In this document: positions 14,649 to 48,172 of the stretch, piece by piece
How positions within the stretch are numbered: the first letter of the stretch is position 1
How the letters are laid out: each line of letters starts with the position of its first letter
Assembly (NCBI GenBank): GCA_032718475.1
Contig: JAUCBJ010001165.1
Span: 1 to 64,000, forward strand
Origin: Nemertoderma westbladi
Taxonomy: Eukaryota; Animalia; Xenacoelomorpha
Direction: 5' to 3'
DNA: 64,000 nucleotides
Notes under the pieces: generated by a model
Database searches by the model: none
Told to the model about the DNA's origin: nothing
What the model saw: the letters and a program-made list of their open reading frames with translations, nothing else
Translations under genes and position numbers: made by a program

Positions 14649-17426
14649 TGTTCGCGCTTTTAACCCTATTAGTACCGGGCTATAAAATGTTGTACAAATA
14701 CCGGGGGGGGGGGGGGGGGTCATATTGACCCCCCCCCCTCTAAAATCTACAAATATTTACGAAAACGTCTGATTTTTTGTTTGTACGTAGGTATCACTTG
14801 TCTGGATGCGACCGAAAAAAAAAAATTTCGAAAAAATGTACTGGGGTGGTTATATTGCCGCACCAAAATTATAAGTAGTGCACAATTTTCACAAAATTTG
14901 AAAGTTAAATTTTCGGCTAATTATTTTTCAATACAGGTTTTCTGGGGTGCAAAATACATTGGAAAATATTTAAAAATGATATGATTACTATAAATGGCTG
15001 TTTAGTCCTCTCTGCGTAGGAAAAAAATGAAAAAAACAAGTAAACAGCACTTTTCAGTTAGAACACAAAATTTTTAAGTCACTTATACGATGCTATAAAT
15101 TTACATTTTCAGGTTTTCGAGGGCGCTGATTCTAATGGAATACATTTCTAATATGCCAGATCATTGCTACTTATATTTTTCGGCGTAATTTGGCAAATTT
15201 TGGTGCTAGCACCAAATTTCATACCCATCACCAAAAAGTACAAGTTTGCGATGTCCAGTGCTGTTTTTATTGATTCTATCGGATTCAGGACCCTCATAAA
15301 CCCGTATAACGCAAGAAACAAGGTGATACTATCTACTTATCAATTTGCATATTTTCCAAAATTTGGTGCTGGCACAACAATTTTCACCCACCGGCGAAAA
15401 ATACAAGTTTGAGAACTCTTATGAAATTTTTACTGATTCCATTGAATTCAGAACCATCACAAACCCGTATAACGCAAGAAACAAGGTGACACAATCAATT
15501 GATATATTTGATGGTTTTCAAATTTTGGTGCTAGCACCACATTTTGCACCCACATCCGAAAAATACAAGTTTGAGATGTCTAGTTCGCTAATTATATTTT
15601 CTATTGAATTCAGAACAGCCATAAACCTCTAAAACGCAAGAAATAAATTGTCACAAGCAATTTTATCTATTGAATGGATTTTCAAAATTTCGTGCTAGCA
15701 CCAAAATTTGCACACAGCACCGAAAAATACAAGTTTGATACGCTTGGTGCAACTCGTATATATTTCATCGAATCCAGAACCCCAAAAAACCTCAATTGTG
15801 CAAAAATCAAGTTTCAAACAATCAATTTACAAAATTGACTTATTTCAAAATTTGGTGCTGGCACCAAAATTTGGCACCCACCAAAAAAAACAAGTTTGAA
15901 ATTTCTAAATCAATATATATGAATTCCATCCAATTTCTAACACCAAAAAACCGGTGTAAATCAAAAATAGAGATGTTACAATTCATATTTAATGAAATGT
16001 AATTTTCAAAAAACGTCTCAAAAAAAGTGCCAAAAGTAGGGTTAAAAAATGGTGCTATAACTCGAAAAGTACCCAATATTTTTAAAAACGGTTTTCACTA
16101 CTAGGAAGACAATAGATTTTTAGGAAAAGTCATAAAATTTCAGATTCCCAACTGCGTTTGTTTCAGAATTATAATAAAAAAACCACGGGGGGGGGGGTCA
16201 TATTGACCCTCCCCCGGGTTTAATAGGGTTAAGACCTTTGGCAGTTTAACCCGCCAAATCTATATGTCTTCTAGGTTATAAATCGACTTTAGCCTATGAC
16301 AAGTATTTGATACAAATAAATCCAACATTAGCCGAAGCCAGTCTATGCGCGACCATTCACCCACTGGATATACCCGGGAGACTGGATTTGGATGCATTAA
16401 TTTGATTGCGGTGCAGGCCTACCGTACTATTCGATTGATCGTTAATATATAATCTCTGACAAATATTATTCACTTTCGGGAAATATTAGCAGTTCCTTTA
16501 GGACGTGGCGCTCTATCCATATAAACAGAGCTATGACTTACACTATACACAACGGGATGGCTTATAGATCACAAAAGGTGCATTCTTTAGGAAATGCTTT
16601 GTTACTCGGTCAAGCACATACAGACTATTGCACACCACTGCACACTGAATTGCCGATATTCACTGATTTTAATCATGTATAAAGAGAATAGCAACCGACA
16701 TTTGTAGGGCCTATTAAGTAGCATTGAATTCACTACAAACCACGATAATGTATGTCGCAATTGCTATATGTAACCGGTCTCTCTAACCTTAGTGTATCAA
16801 GAAGATTGGGGTTTCTGATCGTTTATCAATATTCTCCAAATAACAATATGCAAACGAATGATACAATTAATAACAAACGGTAAATAGCAGTAAATAATGC
16901 GGTGAAAAGCAGTTTGAGTTTACAGCACGTAGTATGCAGTACCGTGCCAGACCAGGTAGGTAGTGTGCCAAGTTAACCAAGATAACAGTTTTGTGATCCT
17001 TTAATTAAAGACGTTCTAATGTTGGAATAATTCAGAAACATTCCACAGCCGGTGTTCTAAGCTGGGAAAAACGTCATTACTGAATCATGTGATTCTGCTG
17101 TACAGTTTTCATACAAAGAGGAAAATCTCTCTGATTGGTCAAACTGGCTGAGCCGAACAAAGAACCAAAGCTCCTGGCAAAAAGCTCTACGTGTACAGCT
17201 CAGCTGTTAGCTGTCGTCATAGTAACTACACTGTTTCAAGAGGATTTAGCGTATTGCGTCATAGAATTGCTAGTTATGTCCGCTAAAGTACACATACAGA
17301 AGAAATGGCTCTTTTATGTCCACTAAAACACCAGTACAGTAAGGATACGGCTTTTTAGGCCTGTTAAACCAACTACAGAGTACTTTGCGGGGAAAATAAC
17401 CAGCCAATTCCGCAAAAGCTTTTACA
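14649..17426 (-). repeat. Copy A 3' LTR (~1.2 kb net, interrupted by the TTAA element)
   Basis: TGTTCGCGCTTTTAA|GACCTTTGGCAG... matches 28405 onward once 14664-16232 is removed. Confidence 0.93.
14664..16228. mobile_element. Non-autonomous piggyBac-type (TTAA-specific) DNA transposon
   Basis: TTAA at 14660-14663 and 16229-16232; TIRs CCCTATTA...TAATAGGG; subterminal G-run-TCATATTGA-C-run palindromes at both ends. The empty site is visible in the sister LTR at ~28415. Confidence 0.92.
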
Positions 17427-28393: not shown

Positions 28394-28404
28394 AAAACTG
28401 TTAT
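28394..28404 (-). promoter_or_regulatory. Copy A primer-binding-site position, ATAACAGTTTT (not tRNA-like; complementary to LTR 11-mer at 29169-29179)
   Basis: Directly abuts the LTR end, has no TGG, and has an exact 11-nt complement inside the LTR. Confidence 0.65.
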
Positions 28405-29239
28405 TGTTCTCGCTTTTAAGACCTTTGGCAGTTTAACCCGCCAAATCTATATGTCTTCTAGGTTATAAATCGACTTTAGCCTATGACAAGTATTTGATAC
28501 AAATAAATCCAACATTAGCCGAAGCCAGTCTATGCGCGACCATTCACCCGCTGGATATACCTGGGAGACTGGATTCGGATGCTTTAATTTGATTGCGGTG
28601 CAGGCCTACCGTACTATTCGATTGATCGTTAATATATAATCTCTGACAAATATTATTCACTTTCGGGAAATATTAGCAGTTCCTTTAGGACGTGGCGCTC
28701 TATCCATATAAACAGAGCTATGACTTACACTATACACAACGGGATGGCTTATAGATCACAAAAGGTGCATTCTTTAGGAAATGCTTTGTTACTCGGTCAA
28801 GCACATTCAGACTATTGCACACCACTGCACACTGAATTGCCGATATTCACTGATTTTAATCATGTAGAAAGAGAATAGCAACCGACATTTGTAGGGCGTA
28901 TTAAGTAGCATTGAATTCACTACAAACCACGATAATGTATGTCGCAATTGCTATATGTAACCGGTCTCTCTAACCTTAGTGTATCAAGAAGATTGGGGTT
29001 TCTGATCGTTTATCAATATTCTCCAAATAACAATATGCAAACGAATGATACAATTAATAACAAACGGTAAATAGCAGTAAATAATGCGGTGAAAAGCAGT
29101 TTGAGTTTACAGCACGTAGTATGCGGTACCGTGCCAGACCAGGTAGGTAGTGTGCCAAGTTAACCAAGATAACAGTTTTGTGATCTTATAATTAAAGACG
29201 TTCTAATATTGGAATAATTCAGAAACATTCCACAGCCGG
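28405..29239 (-). repeat. Copy A 5' LTR, first part (continues at 48173-48540)
   Basis: Matches 16233-17052; interrupted by copy B at GCCGG. Confidence 0.95.
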
Positions 29240-30562
29240 TGTAAAAGCTTCTGTGGGATAGAACTGGCACTTAGCTCCGCAATCCAGTTATCTCCCCGTG
29301 CGCTCAAATACTCTAAAACCCTGCTGTGGAGTGTTTACGGATATAATCCGTTCCCTGGCTCACAAAGTACCGTATATGTAAAAGCTTTGTGGGATGACTG
29401 GCTCGTTTGCCTTGCTAAACAGTTCCCCCCCCCATCGCTGTGATACTCTCAAAGGGATCTGGCTTGAATGGCAAGCTGCCTGTTGGTTGGCTAGATTGCT
29501 CCTCCCTGGATGGAAGCTCTCAATAAGCCTGCCTGACATATCTGCCAATAAGATTGGAGCTAGTTCTGATTTTGTCCAATACCAAGCTACTGAACTGAAA
29601 ATCCGCTCTGTATGCTCCTAGGTTTCGCTTTTGATTAAAGTTCTTAGTTTTTCATCATTCAGTCACGAGTTTTAGACTTCTAAGCGAGGAGTGTTATAAG
29701 ATCGGTTCTGAGATGACGAAATGTTTTCTGCCTTTTGTACGAACATTGGTAGGCTAAATTATAGAAAGCATAACTGTTATCTTACTTAAATTAACAACTT
29801 ACCATATTTCTCGTTCAATCACTTAATAACTCGACTCAATGCAACAATTATATCTTAACCTACCGTCATACTGCTTTTACTGTTTGTAATTTTGTATCAG
29901 TATAATTGGATGTTATTATTTGAAGAATATCAATAATCAACCCACATTTTCCCAATCTCCTTGATACACTACAGGTTAGAGAGAAGGGTTATGTACAACA
30001 ATTGCGACTTTATTATTGTGTTTGTAGTGAATCTAATGTTGTTTGACAGACACTACCTGAGTCCAGTGCATATCTCTTTATACCTGATCAAAGTCAGTAA
30101 ATGTCGGCATACCAGTGAGCAGTATTGTGCGTTACCGGTAGCGTGAGTGATTGTAACGTGATTGGATCTGATAACAAAGCATTCCTAAAGAATGCGCCTT
30201 ATGCTTGAAATATAAGCCCTATCGTTGTGTTTAATATAAGTCATAACTCTGTTTACATAGGTAGAGCGCCACGTCCTAAAAGGAACTGCTAATATTTCCC
30301 GAAAGTGAATAATATTTGTCAGAGATTATATATTAGTGATAAATCGAATAATACAGTAGGCTTGCCCGCAAATAAATTTAAGCCCACGAATCCAGTCTCC
30401 CGGTGTTATATAACGGGTCATTTGGACGCGCATGGACTGGCTTCGGCTAATGTTCTGACTTGTTTTTATATTAAATCTTGTCATCGTATAAAAGGCTATT
30501 TATCAATAAAGACATATAAATTTCGGCAGGTTAAACTGCGGAAGGTCTACAAAGCGCGTACA
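29240..30562 (+). repeat. Copy B 5' LTR (1323 bp)
   Basis: Direct repeat of 46844-48167. Confidence 0.97.
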
Positions 30563-30573
30563 ATAACAGTTAT
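30563..30573 (+). promoter_or_regulatory. Copy B primer-binding-site position, ATAACAGTTAT (complementary to LTR 11-mer ATAACTGTTAT at 29770-29780)
   Basis: Directly abuts the LTR end, has no TGG, and has an exact 11-nt complement inside the LTR. Confidence 0.65.
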
Positions 30574-32618
30574 AAATCTTAATTTGCGGCAAGCAATAAG
30601 GTTAGAAAGTACCGGTCGACCGGTAAAGTAGAACCGGTACTCCAGTAGGTCCGTAGGTCCAACTGCCAGAACCGGTACTCTTGTAGGTCAGTAGGCCCTA
30701 CTGCCTGAACCGGTACTGCTGTACAAGTACCTTAGTATTATTTCGATTGTGATATTATACATTGGTAGGCTGTTTAAGAAATTAGGGACTGTACGTACAC
30801 CCCTTGTTTCTTTTGGAGCTTATTTATTTCTGTCAGTTCTTATTTACGTGTAAGTTAGTATTGAGTAGAAGACGTGTAAGTCTGCTCAGATTGTTCAGAT
30901 CATTGTAGGCTGGACTGTTGTCTGACTGTTGTTAGGCTTGAAGATTACAGCGTGTGTAGAGAGTCTGATAAAGGCCAGTTAGTAAGTTGAGGCAACTCAT
31001 AGTTGTAAGGTCAACCCTCTTTAAAGAATAAGTCGCGCTACCGTATTAGCACGCATACTCACTAACAAGTTTCAGAATCTGCATATACTGTGGTTATTTA
31101 GGCTTGATAGTAGTCCGTCAGCGTTTATACTGTACTGTCTGTATAATCTGTTCAGGTACCGTAATAGTATTATTTAGATATTTTGTAGGCTGGATTGTTG
31201 CCTAGCTGTTGTTGGTCTGAAGAATTGCCGCGTGTGTAGAGTGTGTCTGATAGGTGCCAGTTAGTAAGTTGGGGCAACTCGTAGTTGTAAGGTCAACCCC
31301 CTCTAAAGAATAAGCCGCGCTACCGTGTTAGCACGCATACTCACTAACGAGTTTCAGAATCTGCACATCCTGTAGTTTATTTAGGCTTAATGGTAGTTTG
31401 TCAACATTTGGTTTGTATTTTATTTGAGTATTCTGTACGGATAGCGTAATATTTATTACTCAGAGTTTATGCGATTACTCGCAACATTCATGTCCCCAAG
31501 TTTATTCCTACAGTAATTGTGTTTGTTATACATACCGTTATAGTTAAATTAACCCCAGTACTACACGGGCTGCTTGGCGTAGGTAAAGACTGGTGACTTA
31601 GTGCCCCGGTCACTCCAGCAGATGCTGTGGTTCTTTTAACTGTTCAAGTATATTTAACTACTGGTTATCTGTTTGACAAGTACTTGTACCTAATTTAGGG
31701 TTTAGTGTACAGTGCTTTCCGAGAGTAATTAGTGTAGGCATTATTGTGTTGTAAAGTAGTTAATAGGCACGCTCGTTCTGGTAGACGGCGGTAATTAACT
31801 TCTAGGTAGGAACACTCCGTAGATACATAACGTTGTACCTATAGCGATACGGCTGTAGGTCGTCAGGCGGTGGTATTTTCCTATCTAGACAACGCAGTAT
31901 TTACTTCTGCTTATTATTCTCAAATACCGTAGTATCCTGTCCGTTGCAATAACCAGAAGATCTAACCCTTTGTTGGACTGGTTATTAGTTCCCTGTAAAA
32001 TTGCCCTAAAAATTTCAGTGCGTAACGTTTTGTCTGTTTATTAGAGATTGTAATCTCACCAATAGTAAGTAACTAGTAGATAAGTAACGTAGGCCAGTAG
32101 AATTATTCTGTATAGTGTCTCATAGGTAGCACTTCACTGAAAGCGCACAGCTTCTGTGTAGTGGTATTTTACTGGAAATAGTAACACCTATTTCAATCTT
32201 GTAACAAATCCCTTATCAGGGTATATATATATTATAAATCAACTCCAAAGATTTATAAATCAGTAGGCCTGTCATAAAACAAGTAAGTCTCAATATCAGT
32301 TGGACTACTGCTTACATAACGGTAACAGAGTAACTCAAGTAACTAAGTAACTTATAATTTCAGAAATTCAATTATCCTAAATAATTGATGTACCGGTATC
32401 TCTAATAGGCTTATTATACAATTGTATATATTTGCACTGAAATTATATACTGGTATTCTGTGAAAAACCTAGTCTGTTATACTTATATATACTATAAGTG
32501 TATACCGGTATTTTAATATTGCAATTAATTACCGGTACTAGGCCAACAGTCTTACTGAATTACTGGACTTGCTTTAACTGTGACTATAGCAGTAGGCATT
32601 CAACTGTGCAACTGAGAT

Positions 32619-35600
32619 ATGTCTGACACACAACAGAATCTGTCGGACAGTCCACCAGACATTACACAGAACCTGTCGGACAGTCCACCAGACACTACCA
32701 TCTGTGACTCAGATAGGAGTGATAAGACTGATAGGACTCAGACAGAGCCCAGTTCACCTCCTACTGAAAGGAAAGTCACCCCTCTAGTAGTAGAATCAGA
32801 TCCCAAGCCAACACACCATAGGTCTATTATAGGCACTCGGGCCCAGGTAAAACGGAACCGAGAAGAAGCTGGCCCATCACAGCAACCTCCTGGCCAAGAA
32901 CCTAGTTCCCAGCAACCCGATAGCTCCAGTAATTCTGATACTGTAGAGCTGAACCCCGAACGCGGAGTGGAGACAGTGGATCCATCTTACCTTGATCCCT
33001 TTCTCACTCTCCCGACCGCGAAGATGGCTGCGGTCTTGATTGCGGTGGAGGAACACCAAGGAGATTGGGCGAGAAATAAGAAATCGACCCAAGAGAGTTA
33101 TTGGGGATACGCAAGGGAAGAATTGATGTCTGTCGTCGAGTCAAACTGGAATAATCCTGGAATAGGATTACCGCTCGATTTGTCAGAAGCGACTTGGGAA
33201 GATATACACAAGATGGGTGTGGCTAAAGATACTATGGATCCAGCTGTTTGGAAGAGGTCCGCAGCAGGATATGTGCAGGGATTCTTCAGCTCCTTACAGA
33301 GGCAGGAAGAACAGCTGTTTCGACAAACCCTAGGACCTCAAGAGCAGGAAGAGCTGCTTTATCAAGTACGTGCAAGTACATTACGCATTAGGCTGATCCT
33401 ATCGGCCTTTGAGGAAACATCTAAAAGAAGGCAAGACACGTCGCTGCAAGTGGCGGTCAAGACTTGGTTCCAGCGGATAGAGCCCAAGGTTAAAGAAACA
33501 GCCCAGTGGAAATCCCGACTGGCTGAGCGACCAACCGATGAGGAATCAACTGGTGCCATCCTTTCTCAAGTGGAAAGTGAAGAGGCGGCAGAGGGACCGC
33601 GAAAGAGAGACGCAATCGATACCTATTTGTCAGATTATCAGCGATTCATAGGAGACGAGGAGCTGAGAAGACGGCTGGCTGGATTTTCACCTAATAGTGA
33701 AGGAGCTAAGCGTGTGTTGGACTCAATTGATGCTGAGATGTTAGCTGCACATCAAGCTAAATTTGATGAAGAAAGACGCATCGCTAGAGCCCAGGAAGCA
33801 CAAGTCCAGAAAAAACGAATAGAAGATCGAAAAGCAGCTGCAGTGGCAGCAGCAGAGGCAGAGGCAGAAAGAAAAGCAGCAGAGGCAGAAAGAAAAGCAG
33901 CAGAGGCAGAAAGAAAGGCAGCAGCAGCAGAGGCAGAGGCAGAAAGAAAGGCAGCAGCAGCAGAGGCAGAGGCAGAAAGAAAGACAGCAGCGGCAGAAGC
34001 AGAAAAGAGAGCGTCTGAAGAGATCGCCCAACTAGAGTTGGAAACTCTGCAAGAGACCCAAGACGACATTAGTAAGCGTTTTACAGAAGGTCGAATGCAG
34101 ATAAAAGGTCGATCTAATTCCAAACGCCTAGGGTATACATCCTCGGAGGAAGGAGATACCACCGACCCTGAAGGTGGAGGAAATAGATCTCGTCTCAGTA
34201 GGCGTAAAAGAATGTCTCCCCGTCAGAGATTGCCTGATTTGCCTCCAGCTGTTAGAAGACAAATATCTAGCACTGCAGTAGGTAGTACAGAACCCACAGA
34301 CCGAACTATTACCATCACCAGACTCCCTACTATAGTAGATGAGCCGGAAATAATTAAGCCTGTTCTAGAAAACACCCCTTCGGTGAGAGAGACCCCTGTA
34401 CTCCCCAAACCTACTACAAAATTCCCTTTACACAGTACTATTAAATTGACTGCACCTGGTGGAGCAGCCCAAGTCCCAGTTCTGGAGACCGAGAGAGACA
34501 TACAAGATTTGTCTCCCGTCGTCCCGATGCGGCCCGCTACAACGTTGGCGACTCCCGCTTCGGCGGTCGAGTGGGTTGAGAAGGGACGGCGGGAGATGAG
34601 TCTCTTGCTCGGTCAAATGAGAGAACAGCGGGACTGTTCCTCCCAACAGATCCGGGACTTAGAAGGGACTGTCTACCAACTCAAGGGAACAGTAAGGGAT
34701 AGTAGGATAGAGCTGCAAGAAGTGCAGCAAAATATCGCGCTCGAGCGCGACAAATTAGTCAATATACAAAGGGGAATACCAACACCCCCTGTAACCCTGT
34801 GTCAACCTGCTAGGTCTGAAGTGTATCATGCGCGAGGTGTGTCGCCTACACGCATATATACTGCTAGCAAAGTAGAAACACCCCCCGTAACCCTGAGTCA
34901 GCCTGTTAGGTCTGAAGTATATCATGCGCAAGGTGTGTCGCCTATACGCATATATACTGCTAGCGAAGTAGAAACTCCTATAGTAAACCCTATTAAGGGA
35001 GATTACAAACCTGTGAGTGATGATATTCCCTATAGACCTGATAATAATCCGAAAAATTTATATACCGATAATTCGATATTAAATAACACGATGGCCCAAG
35101 AAAGCTTTACGCGTCAGATGGCTAGAACAGAAGCCCGCCAAGCGGTCAAAGTGGGAGAAATTGTCAAATTCAACGGAGATGAGATGAAATGGTTACCTTT
35201 TAAAGAATATTATGAAGATAGCATACAGAACTCTGTACTATCTAGCGGAGAGAAACTGAGATTCCTCATCAAATGTTTGGAAGGACCTCCCAAGTTAATG
35301 GCGTTGAAGTTTATTGGACATCCAAATGGATTAAGACAAGTCTGGGATACATTAAACACCAGGTATGGTAATAAAGATAATATCGCTAAGTATTTGTATG
35401 CAAAACTGGTAGCTCCCCGAAAGTTCCTTAGTAACGAGATTATAGAGTTTTCCGATGAGATTCAAGAAATCTGCAGGCAATTGGATTGGTTAGGTAAGTC
35501 CCATGAATATCAGAGCTCCATGGTTATCGGAGCCATAGTCTCTACTTTGCCAAAGGGTGGAGTATGTACACGTTGGGACAAGAAGGTGTTGCATATGATG

Positions 35601-38600
35601 GAACAACAACGAAGGAGTCCTATCATGGCGGATCTCATGTCATTCCTAGACTGCGAGGTCAAACTACAGCTAATCAAGCAATCCCGAGAAAAAACATCGG
35701 AAACCAAGGTAAGTGAGAAACCCGTTTCTAGGAGGAGAGTAACCCCAGTATGTTATACTGACGAAGGCGAGAGCCAAGTTTCTCAAGAAGAAGACAGCGG
35801 AAAGGACACAGACCACTCTTATTATTTTAACAAAAACTCGAGTGACGTAAGTAAATACCAACCTCGAACCAATGATAGGAGAGATAAGTTTACCAAGACC
35901 CCTCCTCAGTCTCCCAAAAGAATTCAGGTAAGAAAGCCCGAAGAAAGAACCAAAGTGCATAACATTACCCAAGGTAAAGTGAGCAACATCAAGTTAAACT
36001 GTGCACTGTGCGACGGGCTCCACCGCTTGGGTGCGTGTGCTGAATTCCTAAAGAAACCCCTAGCAGACAGGAGAGAAGTCGTGTGGAATAAGCGGTTATG
36101 TTATAATTGCCTCAGACCAGGACACCAACGGCAGACCTGTTACTCCGATATAAGGTGTGCAAAGTGCGGTGCGAAACATCACAGCTTGCTACATAGTGAA
36201 CTCGACCGAAACCACCCGAGTCAGGTAAGTGAGCCCGAACTGCACGTCCAATTCAGTGATGTGAACGACACCGACCAAGGTTCTGAGTGGGAGGGATTCT
36301 ACACAGACGAATTCTCTGATGCCAACGAATCCTGTTATCTAATAAACACCGCAGTGTATCGAGCACTTACGTACGAAAAGGACAACGATACGGAGTTTCC
36401 ATCAACCCCCTTGGATAAGCAACCATCTTGGAAAGTTCCAACATCCAACATAGGAATACGAGAATTTCCGGTAGTCCAGGTAAGAGTTCACGGTCCCAAC
36501 AAAAGTTACATAGTGAACGCCCTCCTTGACTCAGGTAGCACCGGAACATTCATCGACAAGGAATTGGCCGAGGATATTTTTGCTGGACAACCCAAATTCC
36601 GAACTAAGTTAAATATGTCCGGAATTATGCAGGTTTGGAAATCTACCTTAACGGCAGATTACTATATCGGCTCATTGTCCACTCCACAGGATAGATTAGG
36701 GGAACAAAGTATAAGGTCAGTAAAAATGGTGGCAATAAAGAACTTCGCTACTACTCAAGTAGAACCTTATGACTGGGACGAGGACGAGAACATCCAACAT
36801 CTAGGAATACCTCGATTCCAAACTGATTATCCTGGAGTACAAATCCTCATAGGCCAAAACGCGCACGAGGCGCTCGAGACGTTAGAGAAACGGCCTGCTC
36901 AACCGCAGCCATTACAACCTTATGCGGTGAGAACTCGAGTAGGTTGGTACTTCACTGGCCCTTCCCGTAGAACCCTTGAAGAAAGACTGCCACAAGACCG
37001 GACACTTCAAGTGAATGATTGGGAAGAGGAGAGCAGTGAGGTTGACGAACTCACTGAGGGAATACAATACTCCTCAGACAACGACAACACCTACCAACTC
37101 TTCGAGGAAGAGCACACGATCGATTTATTAACCGAGAATAACACATGGAGTGACCAGCAAACTTTGTGTCAACTAATTTATCCATCAGGATCTATGGACT
37201 ACAATGACGAACTCAATGAAGAGATAGAGCGTCACAACGCTAGAACCCGAGACGAACTTGCCGTACGATTCTTTACCCAAGAGCTAGTAGAACCAAATTC
37301 GTACGATAAGGCTCTATCAATAGAAGAGGAAAGAGCCAAGCAAATTCAGGAAACAACTACGCGTTTTCTAAAAGATCAGGGTAGGTATGAAATCGGCCTA
37401 CCATTTCGAAAACGAGAACCTAGATTTATAAACAACAGACCCTTGGCCGAGAAAAGACTCTCTCAATTGCATCGACGCCTTACGGCAAACGCTTCAGCTA
37501 AAGAAATGTACCAAACGCAGCTGAAGAAATTTATTAGCAAGGGTTATGCGGAGCGAGTACCGGAAGAAACACCCATAACAGAGAGAACATACTACCTAAC
37601 ACATCATTATGTTCCCAAACCCGGTAAACCACATGAAGTACGCGTGGTATTTGATGGCTCCGCCCTATATAAGGGTCAATCTCTGAATTCCGAGTTGCTA
37701 CCAGGACCCAACTTACTACAATCACTGTTGGGAATACTTCTGAGATTAAGACAATATTCTATAGCGTTCGCCTCCGATATCGAAGGAATGTTCTTACAGG
37801 TTAAGGCGTTAGATAAAGATAGAGACAGTTTAAGGTTTCTATGGTGGCCTGAAGGAGACCTCCAACGGACACCAGAGGAGTACTGGATGACCATCCAAGC
37901 TTTTGGGATCATATCCAGTCCTTCCAACGCCTGCTCCGTAGTACGAACTACTGCGGATGACAACCGAGACGCCTTCTCCAAAGAGGTGATTGACAACATC
38001 AAGAAGAACATCTACATGGACGACAATTTAAAGTCCCTTCCATCGGTAGAACAAGCCATTGAGGTCGCGAAAGGAACGGTAGAGTGTTTGAAAAGAGGTG
38101 GATTTCGACTGACGAAATTCACTAGCAACTCCCGCGAGTTTCTAGAAGCGATACCGATAGAAGACCGAGGAGCGAAAGACCTCGATCTGATAAAAGACGA
38201 TCTTCCAGAGACCAAGACGCTTGGCTTAAAATGGGACACAGAAAGAGATATCCTGTTTTTTCAACTAAAACAGCGCGAGAATCCAGTTCGGACCAAACGG
38301 ATTTGTCTAAGTATCCTGAGCACTTATTTCGACCCATTAGGATTTATTAGTCCAGTCATATTGATTGCTCGGAGTTTAGTACAGCAAATGTGGCTGGAAA
38401 ACCACTCATGGGACGATCCACTTACGGGAGAGCTACTAAAGAAATGGATGAAATGGGAGGATTCTCTACCTGCCATCGAGAGTTTTATAATTTCCCGTTC
38501 ATATTTTGGTCATGTTCTCCCTACGTATTCCTATCAACTCCATGTGTTTGGAGACGCGAGCGACACGGGAATAGGAATAGTAGCATACCTTCGAGTCGAG

Positions 38601-40898
38601 ACTCCAGATGGAATCAAAGTCGCCTTGGTTACCTCTAAGGCATTGATTAATAACAAGTTGAAGGTTCCTCGAGCGGAGTTGAAGGCGGCTCTCTACGCTA
38701 CAGCCATCGGACGGAATGTAACGGAACAGATCGATTATACACTGGAGAAAACTGTGTATTGGACCGACGCTTTGCTCGTGTTGGAATATATAACCAATGA
38801 AGTCTGTCAGTTCAGCGTCTTTGTCACCAACCGAGTGGCCATCATCCTCAGTCGCACAACGATAGACCAATGGAGACACTGCCCTGGTACGATTAACCCA
38901 GCTGATATCGCCTCCAGAGGAGCAACTCCACAAGAACTGATAGATACTCCAGACTGGTTGGGTGGACCCGACTTCCTAAGCAAGGAAGAGGACGAATGGC
39001 CTCCTCACCTTACTACGGCGGAGATCAGACAAGCCAAGGGAGCGGAAAAGATTAAACCAAAAACCCGAGCGAGCAAATCGAAGTTATTCAAACCGCCGAT
39101 CGATCTATCTGTATTACATGCTTCTGGAAATGATGCTTCGGATCCACAATCCCTCGTCACAAACAAATCTGTTGTGGAAATTAAGGACAAAGATTGGCGA
39201 TCTGGAACACCAGACGTCTCGCAAGGAATCTCACCCCTGTTGCAGAGAGCAATACAACATTACAGTTCCTGGAATCGGCTCTGTAAGGCCGTCGCTTATT
39301 TAAAACGATTCTTTCATCATCGTTATTCTGGGACGAAGACCACTGGTGATGCTGCACCACTGACAACAGCCCAAGTCCATGTTATTAAAGATTTACCGAA
39401 ATACAAAACACCATGCCGGTTTCTAAAAGAAAAGATCAGTTATCAGGAGCATGAAGAAGCCAATAAACAAATACTGCGGCTCCTGCAATGCTACGAGGAT
39501 TCTGACAAGTACTTCCTGCTGTTAAGAAACCCGCAGATGCGCTTGAGGGATCGCTTCTCTAGCATAATGATCGATGGGTTAATACGTGTTGGAGGAAGGC
39601 TTACCAACGCGCCATTGTCCTTTGACACTAAATTCCCCATAATAGTTAGAAATCTTGAAGTACAAATCAAGATGATTGTAGACGCCCACAGTAAATTATA
39701 TCATGCTGGTAGAGAACGAGTTCTTAGCGAAATTCGAACGCGCTATTATTTCTATAAACCCCGTAGAGCTCTAAATCAAGTTCTTAGGAACTGCATACCC
39801 TGTAGGAAAGCATTCAGTAGGCCTTTAACACAGCGAGAGGCAGAATTACCTAGGGAACGAGTAAGCTTTTATGAACCACCCTTTACTAATACTGGTGTGG
39901 ATTTATTTGGCCCTATTGAAGTATATCGTGCTAGGACTATAGTCAAGAGATGGTGCGTCGTCTTCGTGTGCATGACTTGTCGAGCCATCCATCTTGATAT
40001 GGTGAACGATCTATCCACTAACAGCTTCGTCTTAAGTTTACGACGACAGATCGCTCGCTTCGGAACTAGTAATACCATGCGATCGGACAAGGGAACGAAC
40101 TTCATTGGCGCCAATAACGAAATCCAGGCTTACGTAAAGGACTGGAACCAAAGACAGGTGGACGATCAGCTAAGAATAACCGCGTCTAGCTGGACCTTCA
40201 ACGCCGCCGACGCCCCTTGGTGGGGAGGAAGTTGGGAGAGATTGATTCGGAGTGTTAAGACAGCATTTCACTTTATAGTGCCGTGCCGTGCGTATCTCAC
40301 CGACGAACTTTTGCGAACGTTAATGGAGGAAATCGCTGCCTATCTCAACGAGAGACCGCTTATGCCAGTCTCATGGAGTCCCGATTCCCTGGAAGCGCTA
40401 ACACCCGCGCACTTCCTACTTAAGAAACCTGTAGCCATGCTTCCCCAATCCGAGATTGCCGACGGAGACGAATATTGCCGCCGAACTTGGCAACTTATGC
40501 AGTTGCTATCTCGTCGTTTCGCTGATCACTTTGAAAAGCATTATCTGCCCACACTACAACTTCGAACTAAGTGGTTTGCGCAGCAAGAAAATGTCAGCGC
40601 CGGAGACATGGTGCTTATTGTGGATCCCGACCTCCCACGTAAGCGGTGGCAGACAGGACGCATCATAGAGACTCACATTTCAAGTGACGGTTTGGTACGA
40701 TCAGTAGAACTCGTAGTTATGCGGCGTAACTTCAAAAAACCGGGAATAATATTTGAGACGCAACAACTCAATCGCCCAGTTGGTCGTTTATGTTTATTAG
40801 AAAGAGACAGAGAACTCTCCGGAAACTATGGAAGGCAAGACACTCTTCCCACGACCACCTCCCTAATTCCTCAAACATCTAGGGACTCCCCGCCTTAA
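32619..40898 (+). CDS. BEL/Pao Gag-Pol polyprotein, 2759 aa, intact
   Basis: BEL-type triple knuckle (CALCDGLHRLGAC, CYNCLRPGHQRQTC, CAKCGAKHHSLLH); protease ALLDSGS; RT RVVFDGS, SDIEGMFLQV, YMDD; RNase H HVFGDAS, PRAEL, WTDA, NPADIASRG; integrase H..H/CIPC, GVDLFGP, SDKGTNF, WERLIRSVK; C-terminal DGLVRSV/RPVGRL. Confidence 0.98.
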   Translation: MSDTQQNLSDSPPDITQNLSDSPPDTTICDSDRSDKTDRTQTEPSSPPTERKVTPLVVESDPKPTHHRSIIGTRAQVKRNREEAGPSQQPPGQEPSSQQPDSSSNSDTVELNPERGVETVDPSYLDPFLTLPTAKMAAVLIAVEEHQGDWARNKKSTQESYWGYAREELMSVVESNWNNPGIGLPLDLSEATWEDIHKMGVAKDTMDPAVWKRSAAGYVQGFFSSLQRQEEQLFRQTLGPQEQEELLYQVRASTLRIRLILSAFEETSKRRQDTSLQVAVKTWFQRIEPKVKETAQWKSRLAERPTDEESTGAILSQVESEEAAEGPRKRDAIDTYLSDYQRFIGDEELRRRLAGFSPNSEGAKRVLDSIDAEMLAAHQAKFDEERRIARAQEAQVQKKRIEDRKAAAVAAAEAEAERKAAEAERKAAEAERKAAAAEAEAERKAAAAEAEAERKTAAAEAEKRASEEIAQLELETLQETQDDISKRFTEGRMQIKGRSNSKRLGYTSSEEGDTTDPEGGGNRSRLSRRKRMSPRQRLPDLPPAVRRQISSTAVGSTEPTDRTITITRLPTIVDEPEIIKPVLENTPSVRETPVLPKPTTKFPLHSTIKLTAPGGAAQVPVLETERDIQDLSPVVPMRPATTLATPASAVEWVEKGRREMSLLLGQMREQRDCSSQQIRDLEGTVYQLKGTVRDSRIELQEVQQNIALERDKLVNIQRGIPTPPVTLCQPARSEVYHARGVSPTRIYTASKVETPPVTLSQPVRSEVYHAQGVSPIRIYTASEVETPIVNPIKGDYKPVSDDIPYRPDNNPKNLYTDNSILNNTMAQESFTRQMARTEARQAVKVGEIVKFNGDEMKWLPFKEYYEDSIQNSVLSSGEKLRFLIKCLEGPPKLMALKFIGHPNGLRQVWDTLNTRYGNKDNIAKYLYAKLVAPRKFLSNEIIEFSDEIQEICRQLDWLGKSHEYQSSMVIGAIVSTLPKGGVCTRWDKKVLHMMEQQRRSPIMADLMSFLDCEVKLQLIKQSREKTSETKVSEKPVSRRRVTPVCYTDEGESQVSQEEDSGKDTDHSYYFNKNSSDVSKYQPRTNDRRDKFTKTPPQSPKRIQVRKPEERTKVHNITQGKVSNIKLNCALCDGLHRLGACAEFLKKPLADRREVVWNKRLCYNCLRPGHQRQTCYSDIRCAKCGAKHHSLLHSELDRNHPSQVSEPELHVQFSDVNDTDQGSEWEGFYTDEFSDANESCYLINTAVYRALTYEKDNDTEFPSTPLDKQPSWKVPTSNIGIREFPVVQVRVHGPNKSYIVNALLDSGSTGTFIDKELAEDIFAGQPKFRTKLNMSGIMQVWKSTLTADYYIGSLSTPQDRLGEQSIRSVKMVAIKNFATTQVEPYDWDEDENIQHLGIPRFQTDYPGVQILIGQNAHEALETLEKRPAQPQPLQPYAVRTRVGWYFTGPSRRTLEERLPQDRTLQVNDWEEESSEVDELTEGIQYSSDNDNTYQLFEEEHTIDLLTENNTWSDQQTLCQLIYPSGSMDYNDELNEEIERHNARTRDELAVRFFTQELVEPNSYDKALSIEEERAKQIQETTTRFLKDQGRYEIGLPFRKREPRFINNRPLAEKRLSQLHRRLTANASAKEMYQTQLKKFISKGYAERVPEETPITERTYYLTHHYVPKPGKPHEVRVVFDGSALYKGQSLNSELLPGPNLLQSLLGILLRLRQYSIAFASDIEGMFLQVKALDKDRDSLRFLWWPEGDLQRTPEEYWMTIQAFGIISSPSNACSVVRTTADDNRDAFSKEVIDNIKKNIYMDDNLKSLPSVEQAIEVAKGTVECLKRGGFRLTKFTSNSREFLEAIPIEDRGAKDLDLIKDDLPETKTLGLKWDTERDILFFQLKQRENPVRTKRICLSILSTYFDPLGFISPVILIARSLVQQMWLENHSWDDPLTGELLKKWMKWEDSLPAIESFIISRSYFGHVLPTYSYQLHVFGDASDTGIGIVAYLRVETPDGIKVALVTSKALINNKLKVPRAELKAALYATAIGRNVTEQIDYTLEKTVYWTDALLVLEYITNEVCQFSVFVTNRVAIILSRTTIDQWRHCPGTINPADIASRGATPQELIDTPDWLGGPDFLSKEEDEWPPHLTTAEIRQAKGAEKIKPKTRASKSKLFKPPIDLSVLHASGNDASDPQSLVTNKSVVEIKDKDWRSGTPDVSQGISPLLQRAIQHYSSWNRLCKAVAYLKRFFHHRYSGTKTTGDAAPLTTAQVHVIKDLPKYKTPCRFLKEKISYQEHEEANKQILRLLQCYEDSDKYFLLLRNPQMRLRDRFSSIMIDGLIRVGGRLTNAPLSFDTKFPIIVRNLEVQIKMIVDAHSKLYHAGRERVLSEIRTRYYFYKPRRALNQVLRNCIPCRKAFSRPLTQREAELPRERVSFYEPPFTNTGVDLFGPIEVYRARTIVKRWCVVFVCMTCRAIHLDMVNDLSTNSFVLSLRRQIARFGTSNTMRSDKGTNFIGANNEIQAYVKDWNQRQVDDQLRITASSWTFNAADAPWWGGSWERLIRSVKTAFHFIVPCRAYLTDELLRTLMEEIAAYLNERPLMPVSWSPDSLEALTPAHFLLKKPVAMLPQSEIADGDEYCRRTWQLMQLLSRRFADHFEKHYLPTLQLRTKWFAQQENVSAGDMVLIVDPDLPRKRWQTGRIIETHISSDGLVRSVELVVMRRNFKKPGIIFETQQLNRPVGRLCLLERDRELSGNYGRQDTLPTTTSLIPQTSRDSPP

Positions 40899-42531
40899 TG
40901 CGTCTGGAGTGGGCGTATGACTATAATATTTTCTCTGTTTTATTTATTTTATATAAATATTATTATTTACTTTATTATAATCGTTTTTATTTAATTTTAG
41001 TTAAGTAGAATGTTATTTTGGATTATTTGGTAGACTAGTGCAATATATTAGTGTTTATTACGTAATTACCTAATATACTTAGTGCGACGACGAGAAACAA
41101 TTATTTTTCTCTTTCCTTACTGTCCGTATTATATTATAAACGCGAGACTATAGTAAGATGATATGTCCGTACTTATTAAAGTACAATAAAGCCACTACTA
41201 TATTTCGTGTATTATTGGTAGGCAGAGTATTAGGAATGCAAAGTTCAGATCCTCGTGTCTCGGCTAAACCAAGCTCTGGGTAGACCTTGGAAACGACTTG
41301 CCTCTTCACACTGACATTGCTTCGTGCGATATTGCTCTTCTACCTATATTAAATAATACATATAGTAGCGTGATGTCCCTCTAACAGTAGCGTAAAACGC
41401 AAATAAATCTGTTAAACTTTTTGACCATCTGTAATTCTAGTCGATTAAGATATCGTGGCACCCACCGATATACTTGAAAGACAAATTCTAGAATCAGTGG
41501 TTAACGTCCCCAGACAAGTTCTGGAATAAATCCCGTGTAGTGCCCATCTTAAATATTAATTTAATATTTATTAAAATCTGGCAAATTCAGATCCTTTAAA
41601 ATTTCTAGTCAATTGAGATATCGTAGCACTTACCGGTATTCTTAAAAGACCATTTTATAGAATTAAGGATCTTATGTCCCCAGATATGTTCTGGAATCAA
41701 AATTGTGTCAATTTCACCATCAAATAATAAAATTCACGGGAATAAATCTAGAATTCATATTTTTATGAATTTAATAAATTGTCATTTTGCACAATTTCTA
41801 ATATTCCCAAAATTCCACTAATTAATAGATCACGGGAGCGGAGATTCATTCGATTGAGTGTGCTAGAGTGCGAGAATCTCCAACATATAGTCAATAGCCG
41901 ATAAAATTCATAAAGTCATGTATAAAGAGGATATTGACAAACTAAAGACTTACTATCAAACAGCATCCCAGATCTGTATGCATGAGAACTACCCTAATTC
42001 TACCGCTAGCTTTACATAATGTCACCATAGCAACACCCACGCTAGAATTAGAAACGAGTTAAAAGAACAATAGAAAACTTGTACCGTTGCCTAGCATAGT
42101 GATTATATAGCACACGGTTGGTATCCAAGGATACACAATAACAACAACGTGACATTCTGGAAGGCATTGACTAACGGACAAATGGCCTGTATGATGGTAG
42201 TTGGTAGCTGTTGTGTGGAATTTGTGCGTTTGTAGGTGAATGTTGCTGCTAAAGTGTGTTTACAGTAGCTAGTCGCAATTGTAAGATAACCCAACTCTCC
42301 CATAGCAAGAACCTCAAGTGATTACAAGCCTTTGGGACGGACAGTGGAGTGACTTGTGCCGGTTATCGTTGTCGTGCTGTTGCCACAACGTTGGCGTAAA
42401 CACCGCGACAGCGGTACATCGGCGCTGAGAATCCCACTGCCCGGGGGGCCTCGATTAGTAGGCAGCGACGCCCGCTAGCCTAAAACATATATATAAACTC
42501 GTTACAATATTGGTGGATCGCGATAGCAGAT

Positions 42532-44943
42532 ATGACGGAATTGATAGAAGATGATCTTGGTATCAGGGAGCGATATAATGTACCTTTGCAGGCGTTTGTG
42601 GATAGCTTGATAAGTGGTGAACCCGGTCACACCACTACGGAGGAAGATGGTCGTTACATCGAACCGCCAATGTCCCAAGAGCAACTCACGCGTGAATTGG
42701 ACTATAGAAAATTCACCGCTCGCTATACGCATCGTAATGGTACGTATATGGACTTTCTAACCACCGGCCATCCGATCGACCTACATGATACGGACGATGT
42801 AGACACCGAAAGAGAAATGGTTTTGTTTAAATACCACGCTCAGCGGAGTCGTAACGATAAACCAAGAATAGACCACGATAACTCTATTCGTAACCGGCTC
42901 GACCGAGAAAACGTTGAGGAACCCGATAAGCGTATCAACTTCAACGACTACCTGGAATTTTTGAGAGAAACTTATCTCAATATTGCCAGTCAACAAAACC
43001 TAGAGACTCGATATCCTCAAGGTATACATCATGATCCCATGGTAGAACTCCAACGACTCTATTTCACCATGATGTATCTCACGGCCGATCGTCCACTACC
43101 CGTGGTTCCCGATAGCTTTGCACAAATGGAGGAGTATTGCAAAACTGGAGAACGATCACCCGCATTCCCTCTACAGGACGTACGTCTATGGTATTATTGT
43201 GACGAATGCCCTAGACCCAACCAACAAACCGAAAGAAGTAAACATCCGCGGAGACGTTGCGCTAAACACAGTTTTACGCGTTGTACGTACGGGAGTTTCG
43301 AGCGAAACCTGTTCGATGTATCGCCCACGGTCGCTCGTCTCAAACAATCACTCAATAAACCCATGATCAGAGTTCCGGAATACTCGGTCAGGCCTCCTCA
43401 TTCCCCTATTAGACCTCAAACTCTTGATCCTAATAGTATCACTGATCCTCCCGAACTATATTCTCTGTTCAAAGACGTGGTGTTACCTGAGCAGTTAATA
43501 GGTGGTACTCCGGTAGTGGGTTCTTTAGACATTCGACCATCCTACCTAGCCGGATTGGGACGCGGGCATCTTATATCGCCATTTAATCCCTACAACCGCC
43601 CCGGATTAACCCCGATTCAACCTGCCACGGAAGTCGAGGAGAGCGTTATCAGAAATGCTTTAGACGCTATTCGACAGAAAATCGGGAAAGGAACACAGGA
43701 TTACCTCGAGAAACGTAAATTACAGCAACAAGTCCAAGCGGTGAAGGATTTAGCCTTACCACAGTTCGATCGAGAGATACAAAACCTCGAGAACGACATC
43801 GAGCTGGGACGCACGTACTCTCTACAGGAGTTTCTAGATGAGCGTATGCGACAACGAGCGGAGGAGAACCAACTCGAAAGGAAACATACGGAAATGGACG
43901 AGAGGGAAGAAGCCGCTTTAGCTCAACCCGAAGCCCAAATCCTTATGACGGACCTCTACTCTAAAACTATCCGTCATCCCTCGATGATTCCCAACTTCGG
44001 AGATAAACTCTTCGCGAAAGTACAACCCCAACCGGTCGATATTAGTACAGGATCGCACCAGCTTATCGCCGACGCCCCCATGTTACAGCGCCCGCCGATC
44101 GAAGCTGCTCGCGTTGACAGTATACTCGTTGAACCTCCGGACAATCGAGCGGATCTTATCCGTCGTATGGTACACGATGTCAACATACGCGCTCGTCCTT
44201 TAACGAACTCGTTTTATGGGATTAAAGATCACCCTTATTACGTTAATCTGACTCAATATTATATGATAAAACCGGAAGATCCTATGCATAGCTTGAAGTT
44301 TCTACCGTTAATAAATCCTCTGGACATTGTCGAACTCGAGCAATTACAGAAACATTTGGATCAGTTAGTAAAGGTAAACTCATTTAGAAAACCATATAAC
44401 ATTTCTAGAATTGAGAATGATACGATACCTCCTTATAACCTCGATGGCTTCATTAAAACTCGATTAGTCCATTGGAATCTCGACGTATTATTCGAGGAGG
44501 AGAGAATAAAAAGACACGGAAATATGGAGACGTGTAACACTCAATCCTTGAAGTATAGTGATCTCCCTGACGCTAACCAATGTGCTACCTTGTGGCACCC
44601 GGTAGGGATGACCCTCGAGAACGCTACAAAGGAGTGGAATGAAACTCTTAATATCATTGAGATGTATGGAGTAGTTACCTACGATAATGAAGGCAGCGTT
44701 CCAGTCGGAGAATTAGGAACTACGCGCATGATCCATATACGCGGATTAGCCGGTTCTACCCACGTGTTTACTCAAGCGTGCTCCGACGTGATTGATTATT
44801 CTTTTGAAACTCTCACCGAAACACAAAAGAATCTCCGGCATGGACAATTCGTACTCGCGCAGCGTTACGTCATTGACACCGAACGTAAACCGGATGCTAC
44901 CCCAACCCGTGCTCGAGATGTTGTTCAACGAAAAGATCCTTAA
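42532..44943 (+). CDS. Accessory ORF2, N-terminal 803 aa (Cys/His cluster, Pro-rich region, coiled coil, exonuclease motif I); frameshifted at 44893
   Basis: Long open frame homologous to copies A and C. GVVTYDNEGS has its D/E at 44683-44691. A 20-bp deletion relative to copy C shifts the frame. Confidence 0.85.
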   Translation: MTELIEDDLGIRERYNVPLQAFVDSLISGEPGHTTTEEDGRYIEPPMSQEQLTRELDYRKFTARYTHRNGTYMDFLTTGHPIDLHDTDDVDTEREMVLFKYHAQRSRNDKPRIDHDNSIRNRLDRENVEEPDKRINFNDYLEFLRETYLNIASQQNLETRYPQGIHHDPMVELQRLYFTMMYLTADRPLPVVPDSFAQMEEYCKTGERSPAFPLQDVRLWYYCDECPRPNQQTERSKHPRRRCAKHSFTRCTYGSFERNLFDVSPTVARLKQSLNKPMIRVPEYSVRPPHSPIRPQTLDPNSITDPPELYSLFKDVVLPEQLIGGTPVVGSLDIRPSYLAGLGRGHLISPFNPYNRPGLTPIQPATEVEESVIRNALDAIRQKIGKGTQDYLEKRKLQQQVQAVKDLALPQFDREIQNLENDIELGRTYSLQEFLDERMRQRAEENQLERKHTEMDEREEAALAQPEAQILMTDLYSKTIRHPSMIPNFGDKLFAKVQPQPVDISTGSHQLIADAPMLQRPPIEAARVDSILVEPPDNRADLIRRMVHDVNIRARPLTNSFYGIKDHPYYVNLTQYYMIKPEDPMHSLKFLPLINPLDIVELEQLQKHLDQLVKVNSFRKPYNISRIENDTIPPYNLDGFIKTRLVHWNLDVLFEEERIKRHGNMETCNTQSLKYSDLPDANQCATLWHPVGMTLENATKEWNETLNIIEMYGVVTYDNEGSVPVGELGTTRMIHIRGLAGSTHVFTQACSDVIDYSFETLTETQKNLRHGQFVLAQRYVIDTERKPDATPTRARDVVQRKDP

Positions 44944-44989
44944 AATCGGTTCCGCTGTTTATTGAGATCTACAAAATGACTTTCGAAAT

Positions 44990-46765
44990 ATGGAGGATAC
45001 ACCATATCCATTTGTAGATATGCAGTTAATTGCCCCTTGGGCAGAAGGCCGAGGTTTCTTCCATACCATGTACGCTAATACGTCTAACGACATTACTAAA
45101 GTTCAACGAACTTCCATCGGACATATTGCCTTTCAGGAATACGGATGGAATTTCAAGGTTGGAAATCCCCTTAATTATCAACAAGTATATGGAGACCATT
45201 ATTCCCGATTATACTTTGACGGACCGTTGACCGCACCTGGCGCCGTGTATAGCTTCATGAGTGTTCCACTCCGTCCCTCTTTAGCTATCTACACGATCTT
45301 GGAAAATACCGCACTTTCCGGTTGGCTAGCCGACGTGTGCAGTCGTACTATACGCTCCCATCCGTTAATACTTGGGACCAAACTCGCTAAGCTAGATGAA
45401 CATAATAAATTCATACGCTTTGAATGTTTCCGGCGATTTCTAACCCCGTTCCGCAACGTGGATAGCCAATTTAAAGATCGCGCGTTGACCAAACTCAGCC
45501 TAAGAAACTCAGCTGCTGAGAAGTTGGATAGTGCCGGATTTGCCCTATTTAAGGATATTTGTATCGAGAATTTACATTCTTCTGTTATACAAAGACCTCG
45601 AATCACCACAGGTTATTCTGTCGTTGAGATTCAAACAGTGGGTCCACCAGAAGAGTCAACTACGCTCACCGCATCTACGCACTGGGAAGACGAGCCTATG
45701 TGTATGGAATCTGAGGAGATTCAACCCACTACGCCCCGGAACAGCGACAACGATTACATTATCGAATGGTATCAAGGTCCACAGTGTCTCACTGCGTATG
45801 ATTATCGCCATGCCAACTATGTTGATCGTCAGCGTTGTCGGTTATGCGCATCTAGAGACCATATTACGCCTATGGATACGAATATCCCATGTTCCTATTT
45901 CCAAGAACAGCCTTCAATGGAAATTTACTGCGCTTATTGTCGACTCAATGATTCGCACATTTTTGCTGTCTGCCCCCAGTTCATGACGCAATGCCACCAT
46001 TGTCAGTTGAAAGGACACGCCAGCTTTGATTGTCCCTTTAATAAAGACTTGGAGAGTGTAGACGAAATGATTGTACTCCGTTATATTCGAGCTTGGGAAG
46101 CGAACGCTGATTTACATTGTGACTCACGTCATCGTTACTACCCTGGACGCGCTTACGAAGGAGTTTATGCGTTCCATCCGTATTTATTCGCTTCTGTCGA
46201 ACAGAAAGCGTGCATCCCGAGTTACGAGCTATTAAAGCGCGTCGGAGAATGTATTTCGACTAAGTTTGTGCGCAAATTCCTTAGAAGAGTTAACCCCAGT
46301 GATATTCATTCCTATTATTTAATCAATTTTATCCGACACGATCCGGACTATGGAGAATTATTCGTTAACTCGCATCCTGAGTTACAAGAAGTATATCGAA
46401 GGCCTTACGAATATCGAGCCCGCGAACGCGAGTTGGAGAGAACCATTAAACCAAGACAGTTTCTGACAGCCTACGGTCCACCCACGGCTTCCGTTCAGAC
46501 CACTCGCAGAGGACCTGTGAGAGCAGCCGCCCTAAAGCGAGCTCTAAAGGCCGTTAGACCCCAGTCCCCCGATGTTGATGGCAACCTACCCGGAACCTCA
46601 ACCGGCGGATACACCGACAACAACCCTGCACCCTCTGATGCAATTATATTGCACCCTTCACCCAGGAGCTATAGCCCTCCTTGTAAAGTGGCTCGCCCCA
46701 AAGAGAAAAGGACTCTGGCTAGCCTTAAAAAACTGCGTAAACGTCGTCCGCGCAAGAAAGACTAA
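44990..46765 (+). CDS. Accessory ORF2, C-terminal 591 aa (rest of DEDDy-like exonuclease, zinc knuckles, basic tail)
   Basis: PFVDMQLIA, SIGHIAFQEYG and PLRPSLAIYTILE; CRLC....H, CAYC.....H....CP and CHHCQLKGHASFDCP; ends KKLRKRRPRKKD. Continuous with the upstream part in copy C (ORF 58591-60072). Confidence 0.85.
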   Translation: MEDTPYPFVDMQLIAPWAEGRGFFHTMYANTSNDITKVQRTSIGHIAFQEYGWNFKVGNPLNYQQVYGDHYSRLYFDGPLTAPGAVYSFMSVPLRPSLAIYTILENTALSGWLADVCSRTIRSHPLILGTKLAKLDEHNKFIRFECFRRFLTPFRNVDSQFKDRALTKLSLRNSAAEKLDSAGFALFKDICIENLHSSVIQRPRITTGYSVVEIQTVGPPEESTTLTASTHWEDEPMCMESEEIQPTTPRNSDNDYIIEWYQGPQCLTAYDYRHANYVDRQRCRLCASRDHITPMDTNIPCSYFQEQPSMEIYCAYCRLNDSHIFAVCPQFMTQCHHCQLKGHASFDCPFNKDLESVDEMIVLRYIRAWEANADLHCDSRHRYYPGRAYEGVYAFHPYLFASVEQKACIPSYELLKRVGECISTKFVRKFLRRVNPSDIHSYYLINFIRHDPDYGELFVNSHPELQEVYRRPYEYRARERELERTIKPRQFLTAYGPPTASVQTTRRGPVRAAALKRALKAVRPQSPDVDGNLPGTSTGGYTDNNPAPSDAIILHPSPRSYSPPCKVARPKEKRTLASLKKLRKRRPRKKD

Positions 46766-48167: not shown

Positions 48168-48172
48168 GCCGG

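Follow-up and report, generated by a model that had tools for sequence, protein, structure and literature searches.

Self-alignment and inspection of element ends reveal three related BEL/Pao-type retrotransposons with long terminal repeats (LTRs), here called A, B and C, in positions 1 to 64,000 of contig JAUCBJ010001165.1 of Nemertoderma westbladi (the window). We focused on how these elements prime reverse transcription. Element B, which spans 18.9 kb of the + strand (29240–48167), is nested within the 5′ LTR of A and flanked by a 5-bp target duplication, GCCGG. Its LTRs of 1323 and 1324 bp are the same at 1321 of 1323 aligned bases, with two base differences and one 1-base gap. Element A lies on the minus strand and carries frame breaks and internal deletions; C extends beyond the window, and its 5′ LTR lies outside. 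The LTRs of A, B and C are only 76–80% identical over their common part, and we therefore regard the three as subfamilies. The LTR features are as follows.

29240..30562, + strand: 5′ LTR of B, 1323 bp, TG...CA ends
29770..29780, + strand: predicted self-primer of B, an LTR 11-mer, exact complement of 30563–30573
30563..30573, + strand: primer-binding site (PBS) position of B, directly abutting the LTR and lacking TGG
46844..48167, + strand: 3′ LTR of B, 11-mer at 47375–47385
29235..29239 (left copy) and 48168–48172 (right copy), + strand: GCCGG target duplication flanking B
28405..29239, − strand: 3′ part of the 5′ LTR of A; the remainder, split off by B, is at 48173–48540
29169..29179, − strand: predicted self-primer of A, an LTR 11-mer, complement of the PBS position of A
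28394..28404, − strand: PBS position of A, directly after its 5′ LTR
16229..17426, − strand: 3′ LTR of A with its 11-mer at 16982–16992; a separate insertion has displaced the tip
56560..57732, − strand: 3′ LTR of C, 11-mer at 57329–57339

What stands at the PBS position does not correspond to a tRNA site but follows the LTR of the element itself. No TGG occurs within 18 nt of the 5′ LTR of either A or B, and the window contains no tRNA gene. In B, positions 30563–30573 are the exact reverse complement of 29770–29780, as are 28404–28394 of 29179–29169 in A. Both 11-mers recur in the respective 3′ LTRs (from 47375 and 16982), C retains its copy at 57329–57339 in its 3′ LTR, and the Watson–Crick run is 11 in both A and B. 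The two elements differ at one position of the pairing, position 2 of the primer and position 10 of the PBS, where both partners change; exchanging partners between A and B drops the run from 11 to 9. The observations on which the initial annotation had founded a proposal of tRNA-independent self-priming were all reproduced.

A chance complement in an A/T-rich LTR is one alternative. With offsets and G–U pairs allowed, 11-nt runs are not unusual (p ~0.13–0.28, 60 shuffles). The exact 11-nt complement at offset 0, however, arose in 35 of 20,000 dinucleotide shuffles of the LTR for B and 22 of 20,000 for A (p ~0.002 and ~0.001); offsets of 0–5 raised these counts to 128 and 111. The complement is also conserved in three subfamilies. 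Bases identical in all three LTRs make up 0–43% per 50 bases of the alignment up to 29840 and 47–94% for 29840–30540, and between 29250 and 29860 only one block of at least 7 bases, AACTGTTATCTT (29772–29783), is shared unchanged by all three. The 11-mer thus lies near the border between a poorly conserved part of the LTR and its better-kept 3′ part. Taken with the group comparison below (17/20 versus 1/370), this leaves coincidence, already largely refuted, exceedingly improbable.

Distant BEL/Pao relatives support tRNA-independent self-priming far more than the single change between A and B. An alignment of B Pol with 29 of its matches led to 88 loci, of which 68 come from metagenomes and 20 from assemblies of prokaryotes; two scans of viral contigs gave no relative. 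Long direct repeats were present at 37 of the 88 loci, and the 18 with a readable LTR right end were kept, 19 others being contig-end overlaps or showing the LTR start only. Ends were set by hand for L052 (1 nt), L088 (6 nt, from its sister) and L051 (after its match was known), and the second LTR of L023 stops at the contig end. At 15 of the 18 loci the site is complementary to 10–15 nt of the LTR of the same element, in 13 cases solely across a GTRAG...YAG junction. Contiguous runs reach 11 in L004 and 10 in L032, and are 6–8 nt in 13 of the 15 non-TGG loci with a full LTR. L033 exemplifies the arrangement: it combines a TATA-like motif with GTAAGT as donor, a pyrimidine tract followed by AG, and a PBS complementary to the exon–exon joint.

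A junction search requiring just GT and AG returned matches of 10–15 nt in 13 loci. The single best match used a GTRAG donor at 11 of them, and at the other 2 such a donor shared the top score; GTRAG accounts for 43 of the 975 GT in the relatives' LTRs. We then scored all pairs of PBS and LTR, treating contiguous and GTRAG...YAG matches alike, a strict rule picked only after the junction search results. At least 10 was reached with the own LTR by 17 of 20 elements (the 18 loci plus A and B), covering 12 of 15 families, compared with 1 of 370 cross-family swapped pairs and 4 of 600 leader windows (14/370 and 24/600 if any GT...AG is allowed). Dropping L051 and L088 leaves 15 of 18 positive, A and B included. 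L028 and L078, which have a TGG at or near the LTR end, show no self-match (both score 4). L058 also misses (score 6); its junction contains one G–U pair, at a point where the sister L059 pairs perfectly. Compensation recurs among the relatives. The sisters L070 and L071 have two exon-1 differences with both partners altered, a swap lowering the score from 11 to 8, and L009 and L045 show one compensated pair difference.

When the junction search was repeated blind, with no LTR end given, on 40 more loci, it yielded 7 matches, 6 of them 2–4 nt past a CA. Two of the 7 repeat families already counted, and the match in L081 does not follow a CA. Nothing was found in the other 33, many of which appear to contain little LTR. 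The result for L027, L064 and L075 was ambiguous.

The same data bear on whether a host RNA, such as a tRNA half or other small RNA, might prime these elements while the LTR complement merely shields or regulates the PBS. [quoted passage not shown] The absence of TGG, however, excludes a mature tRNA 3′ end. Moreover, the 17 positive elements have 14 different 10-nt PBS starts, each fitting its own LTR and not that of another family, whereas a host primer would reset the PBS rather than let it track LTR changes. We consider priming by a host RNA highly unlikely.

To judge from these sequences, the A/B/C family is likely to self-prime reverse transcription, contiguous and spliced primers taken together. 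It probably does so with the contiguous LTR 11-mer of its own RNA, cut free as in Tf1. As the initial annotation had noted, Tf1 primes with the first 11 nt of its own transcript. According to two secondary papers (PMC7175516, PMC4600332), this stretch pairs with the PBS, and the RNase H cut falls between its base 11 and base 12.

In B, the process would build on the perfect, conserved and co-varying 11-bp complement found at the PBS position. The transcript would start at or just before 29770 and its 5′ end would fold onto the PBS, closing a 782-nt loop. By analogy with Tf1, element RNase H would cleave behind base 11 (29780/29781), so that a 3′ OH comes to face the first base of the PBS. Starting at 30562, reverse transcriptase (RT) is then predicted to copy U5; the product would be 782 nt of strong-stop DNA attached to an RNA of 11 nt. 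Plus-strand synthesis would finally copy the primer back into the PBS, with the consequence that both sites would change together, in one step.

In most relatives the primer would instead form when an intron is spliced from the transcript of the 5′ LTR, the A/B/C family, L004 and L032 being contiguous. The intron of the spliced relatives would lie 5′ of the cut, such that progeny LTRs would take the intron from the unspliced 3′ copy; splicing of the 3′ LTR copy would yield intron-less families. L015 (1209–1640) has a 157-nt LTR intron, and L032 (1685–1880), with 67% RT identity, has a short LTR with a contiguous site and the same flanks, which suggests intron loss; the sequences make a precise loss the likely origin of the difference. 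We lean, by a small measure, towards a broader picture in which a large part of BEL/Pao is tRNA-independent: the spliceosome would join a micro first exon to exon 2 inside the LTR to build the primer, and splicing would gate reverse transcription. Contiguous primers (L004, L032 and the A/B/C family) would have arisen repeatedly by intron loss or bypass, and the A/B/C family may keep intron remains at 29776–29974.

RNA folding gave mixed support for a contiguous primer. In a fold begun at the 11-mer, the helix is present in the minimum-energy structure, with a pair probability of ~0.42 in B and 0.88 in A; adding 40 upstream bases removes it from the B fold. In A, B and C a pyrimidine precedes the 11-mer and its first base is A, a pattern that resembles an initiator. 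A conserved TATA-like motif, 11 nt ahead of the 11-mer, was disregarded since it is missing from the A 3′ LTR.

Several results weigh against the contiguous 11-mer as primer. The whole-fold z-score is −1.36 and the helix is missing from the centroid. No 11-mer, whether that of B, of C or of the A 3′ LTR, has a TATA[AT]A upstream. Within the A/B/C family there is only one compensated pair, and the nearest relatives found are 39–44% identical to B in RT–RNase H where measured, so that their evidence is one of analogy within the group. Other copies of the family, which were examined only through assembled contigs of public runs, add a further difficulty. In three DNA runs from two studies (X1, X2 and X3; 40 of 268 difference rows for 28250–30750), 96–98% of the summed depth at the 11-mer carries 29773 A>G and 29776 G>A. 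Paired with a PBS that has not changed, the variant gives one mismatch and one wobble (−3.9 versus −10.1 kcal/mol). The PBS changes predicted beforehand, 30567 C>T and 30570 T>C, were not seen, with high-depth contigs absent over the PBS.

The reach of that last result is set by coverage. Contig depth falls from ~190,000 at 30540 to 500–1,700 at the PBS; the high-depth contigs therefore did not cover the PBS, and the predicted compensation was neither borne out nor fully probed. Strict covariation over all copies, which the initial annotation had predicted, was thus not confirmed, while tRNA-independent self-priming itself stands well supported at the sequence level. Support for the transcription start at 29770 that the initial annotation proposed is only indirect, and that annotation did not anticipate the primers built across an LTR intron in most relatives. 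Within 30515–30625, the aligned contigs show no substitution row inside 30563–30573; insertions and loose ends start at 30572–30574, and variation begins at the PBS 3′ edge (30573/30574). One loose-end cell in X3 has G at the first PBS position, which a G–U pair would tolerate. The B-type 11-mer has close to twice the depth of the B-type PBS (nearly 2:1), a ratio that we did not use because depth does not measure copy number. The run search listed no RNA run containing the sequence, and the exact LTR-end pattern had 0 matches in metagenome contigs.

The high-depth variant also bears on whether the A/B/C family, like most relatives, uses a spliced self-primer. Here removal of a 199-nt intron (29776–29974) would join 29770–29775 to the GTTA at 29975 and produce a match of 10 bp, offset by 1 nt. 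In its contiguous form the 11-mer would then be a by-product, intron and exon having the same first four bases, or the descendant of a decayed intron. The candidate acceptor is the following block.

29953..29985, + strand: acceptor-like block of B, CTTGAT...YAG then GTTAG; conserved, AG ending at 29974, function putative, no consensus donor

A spliced primer would bring the family into line with the 13 of 18 relatives that use a junction, and the branch-like CTTGAT ~11 nt ahead of YAG and GTTAG is kept in A, B and C. The high-depth variant would pair fully (−9.8 kcal/mol), because 29776 is the first intron base, and the first-position PBS variant seen in one run would fall in the spacer. Yet the donor, GTTATC, is far from the GTRAG of all 13 spliced relatives and from the minor-intron donor as well, and a change of its first base from G to A would ordinarily prevent splicing. 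A strong-site search gives no junction in B, AG+GTTA is a 6-mer fairly frequent by chance, and the neighbouring LTR is conserved anyway. A spliced primer in this family is therefore unlikely but a rival to be reckoned with, and from its sequence 29953–29985 could possibly mark the 3′ end of an intron, vestigial or atypical, that begins at 29776.

Alternatively, the pairing could be structural, serving packaging, dimer formation or closure of the 5′ end, with priming by a protein or a hairpin deeper in the leader. The B PBS is a near-palindrome (homodimer −5.0 kcal/mol), several relatives have palindromic cores, and ACCGGT palindromes are repeated in the leaders just past the PBS (5 in B and 3 in A, within 540 nt). 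The palindrome, however, is broken in A while the LTR pairing is retained. The helix always ends within 0–4 nt of the LTR end, the point at which minus-strand synthesis has to begin, and it is missing in the two TGG elements. A purely structural role is accordingly quite improbable, and we retain self-priming as the preferred reading.

Self-priming with a contiguous 11-mer would make A and B resemble Tf1 and Tf2 of Schizosaccharomyces pombe, Tj1 and the Tf1/sushi group of Ty3/gypsy chromoviruses, in all of which an 11-nt PBS is complementary to the element's own LTR RNA and no tRNA is used. A and B nonetheless carry Pao domains, which place them in another superfamily, and no chromodomain match was found in B Pol; they would work like Tf1 without being members. 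The start site and the cut are shown for Tf1 and predicted for B, whose loop measures 782 nt. Most BEL/Pao relatives split the primer by an intron, whereas none was found in the available descriptions of Tf1/sushi. The Tf1 primer is reportedly not removed, and a U5-IR-like RNA structure is said to surround the PBS in the Tf1/sushi group, both according to reference titles. A published criterion for self-priming (PMC6317226), under which 10 bp or more of the 5′ LTR are complementary to a site 0–5 bp after the LTR, describes A and B as it does the plant lineages predicted to self-prime, Tcn1 (Ty3/gypsy) and TAR/Houba/Osr-1 (Ty1/copia). Those belong to other superfamilies and hosts, and have contiguous primers only as far as they are described there.

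B is filed as BEL/Pao-type because of its proteins; it departs from the ICTV description in other respects. Its remaining features are listed here.

32616..40898, + strand: Gag-Pol frame of B, 2760 amino acids stop to stop, with Gag DUF1759, protease, RT YMDD, Pao RNase H region, integrase and DUF5641
42484..44943, + strand: extra 3′ open reading frame 1 of B, 819 amino acids, no Pfam match above cut-off
44966..46765, + strand: extra 3′ open reading frame 2 of B, 599 amino acids, CCHC-like motifs, no Pfam match above cut-off, no homologue found
46836..46843, + strand: purine-rich tract of B (polypurine tract position), preceding the 3′ LTR

The Pol domains of B occur in the BEL/Pao order of protease, RT, RNase H and integrase (DUF1759, Peptidase_A17 with E 2.8e-36, integrase H2C2, DUF5641), and the acidic motifs of RT and RNase H were located. 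Its best database matches share this domain set. In RT–RNase H they are at most 46% identical, and the named ones among the 120 matches listed are mostly from marine invertebrates. As in ICTV BEL/Pao (Belpaoviridae, genus Semotivirus), B has TG...CA LTRs, a 5-bp target duplication, a single Gag-Pol frame, a purine tract and extra 3′ frames. ICTV gives an 18-nt PBS for tRNA-Arg or tRNA-Gly, genomes of 4.2–10 kb and LTRs of 0.2–1.2 kb, and calls replication poorly understood (PMC8742986). In contrast, B lacks a tRNA site, measures 18.9 kb with a 1.32-kb LTR, and its extra frames have no envelope match in Pfam. In a tree that kept 66 of 83 matches (17 short ones were left out), added 7 database proteins and contains no named BEL/Pao reference element, B forms a long branch. 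Contiguous-primer types do not cluster together, and the tree was not used for the order of events.

Self-priming runs contrary to the ICTV description of BEL/Pao as host-tRNA-primed. If these elements do self-prime, self-priming would be present in all three LTR superfamilies, tRNA-based annotation tools would overlook the PBS of many animal elements, and control by tRNA fragments would not apply to such elements. Were the primer built across a splice joint, reverse transcription would be coupled to RNA processing in the nucleus. Our literature search found no report of BEL/Pao self-priming or of a spliced primer, with most subscription papers, Repbase Reports and supplements outside its scope. 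Repbase Reports are said to describe self-priming palindromes for some LTR families. Self-priming is named for Tf1/sushi, Tj1, Tcn1, TAR and fungal elements, and for no BEL/Pao element, in the relevant passages of PMC7175516, PMC4600332, PMC6317226, PMC5443660, PMC3601003 and PMC6934838. Term look-ups in the BEL/Pao papers PMC554778, PMC3118150, PMC2774666 and PMC6238403 found no mention of a PBS, and the available sections of PMC13524379, PMC3286476 and PMC12440569 contain no self-priming. A tRNA-Tyr PBS is given for a fly element (PMC4580426).

Some further features of the elements and their surroundings were noted. The two extra 3′ frames bring B to nearly twice the ICTV size range, and have counterparts in C at ~57800–62100 (− strand), with ~90% DNA identity between the frames of B and those of C. 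Ahead of Gag DUF1759, B encodes ~850 residues with Ala/Glu/Arg/Lys-rich repeats (32616–35100, + strand), a stretch far longer than in the database matches (~2000 amino acids in all). Tandem repeats of ~280–290 bp lie in the leaders of A (26961–28123) and B (30891–31464). The same satellite forms two arrays, with offsets of ~38 bp, on either side of the A/B nest (12521–14651 and 48541–50477), as if A had inserted into one array. Another insertion (~16150–16228), starting at TTAA and possibly piggyBac-like, replaces the tip of the A 3′ LTR. Elsewhere in the window, frames encode a LINE-type endonuclease and RT (7917–10244, − strand) and a fibrinogen C-terminal domain (51561–52517, + strand).

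Among the relatives, BEL/Pao Pol genes occur on 20 contigs of prokaryote genome assemblies (L069–L088), which are probably animal host DNA binned with symbionts. One of these, L078, has a BEL/Pao element at 7559–13538 that retains both LTRs, a target duplication of 5 bp and a PBS with TGG, in a record titled Wolbachia chromosome (1.44 Mb); it is either host sequence in the assembly or a true insertion. In L082 (1623–6342), the BEL/Pao element harbours a second LTR element, whose LTRs measure 331 bp and which has no TGG.
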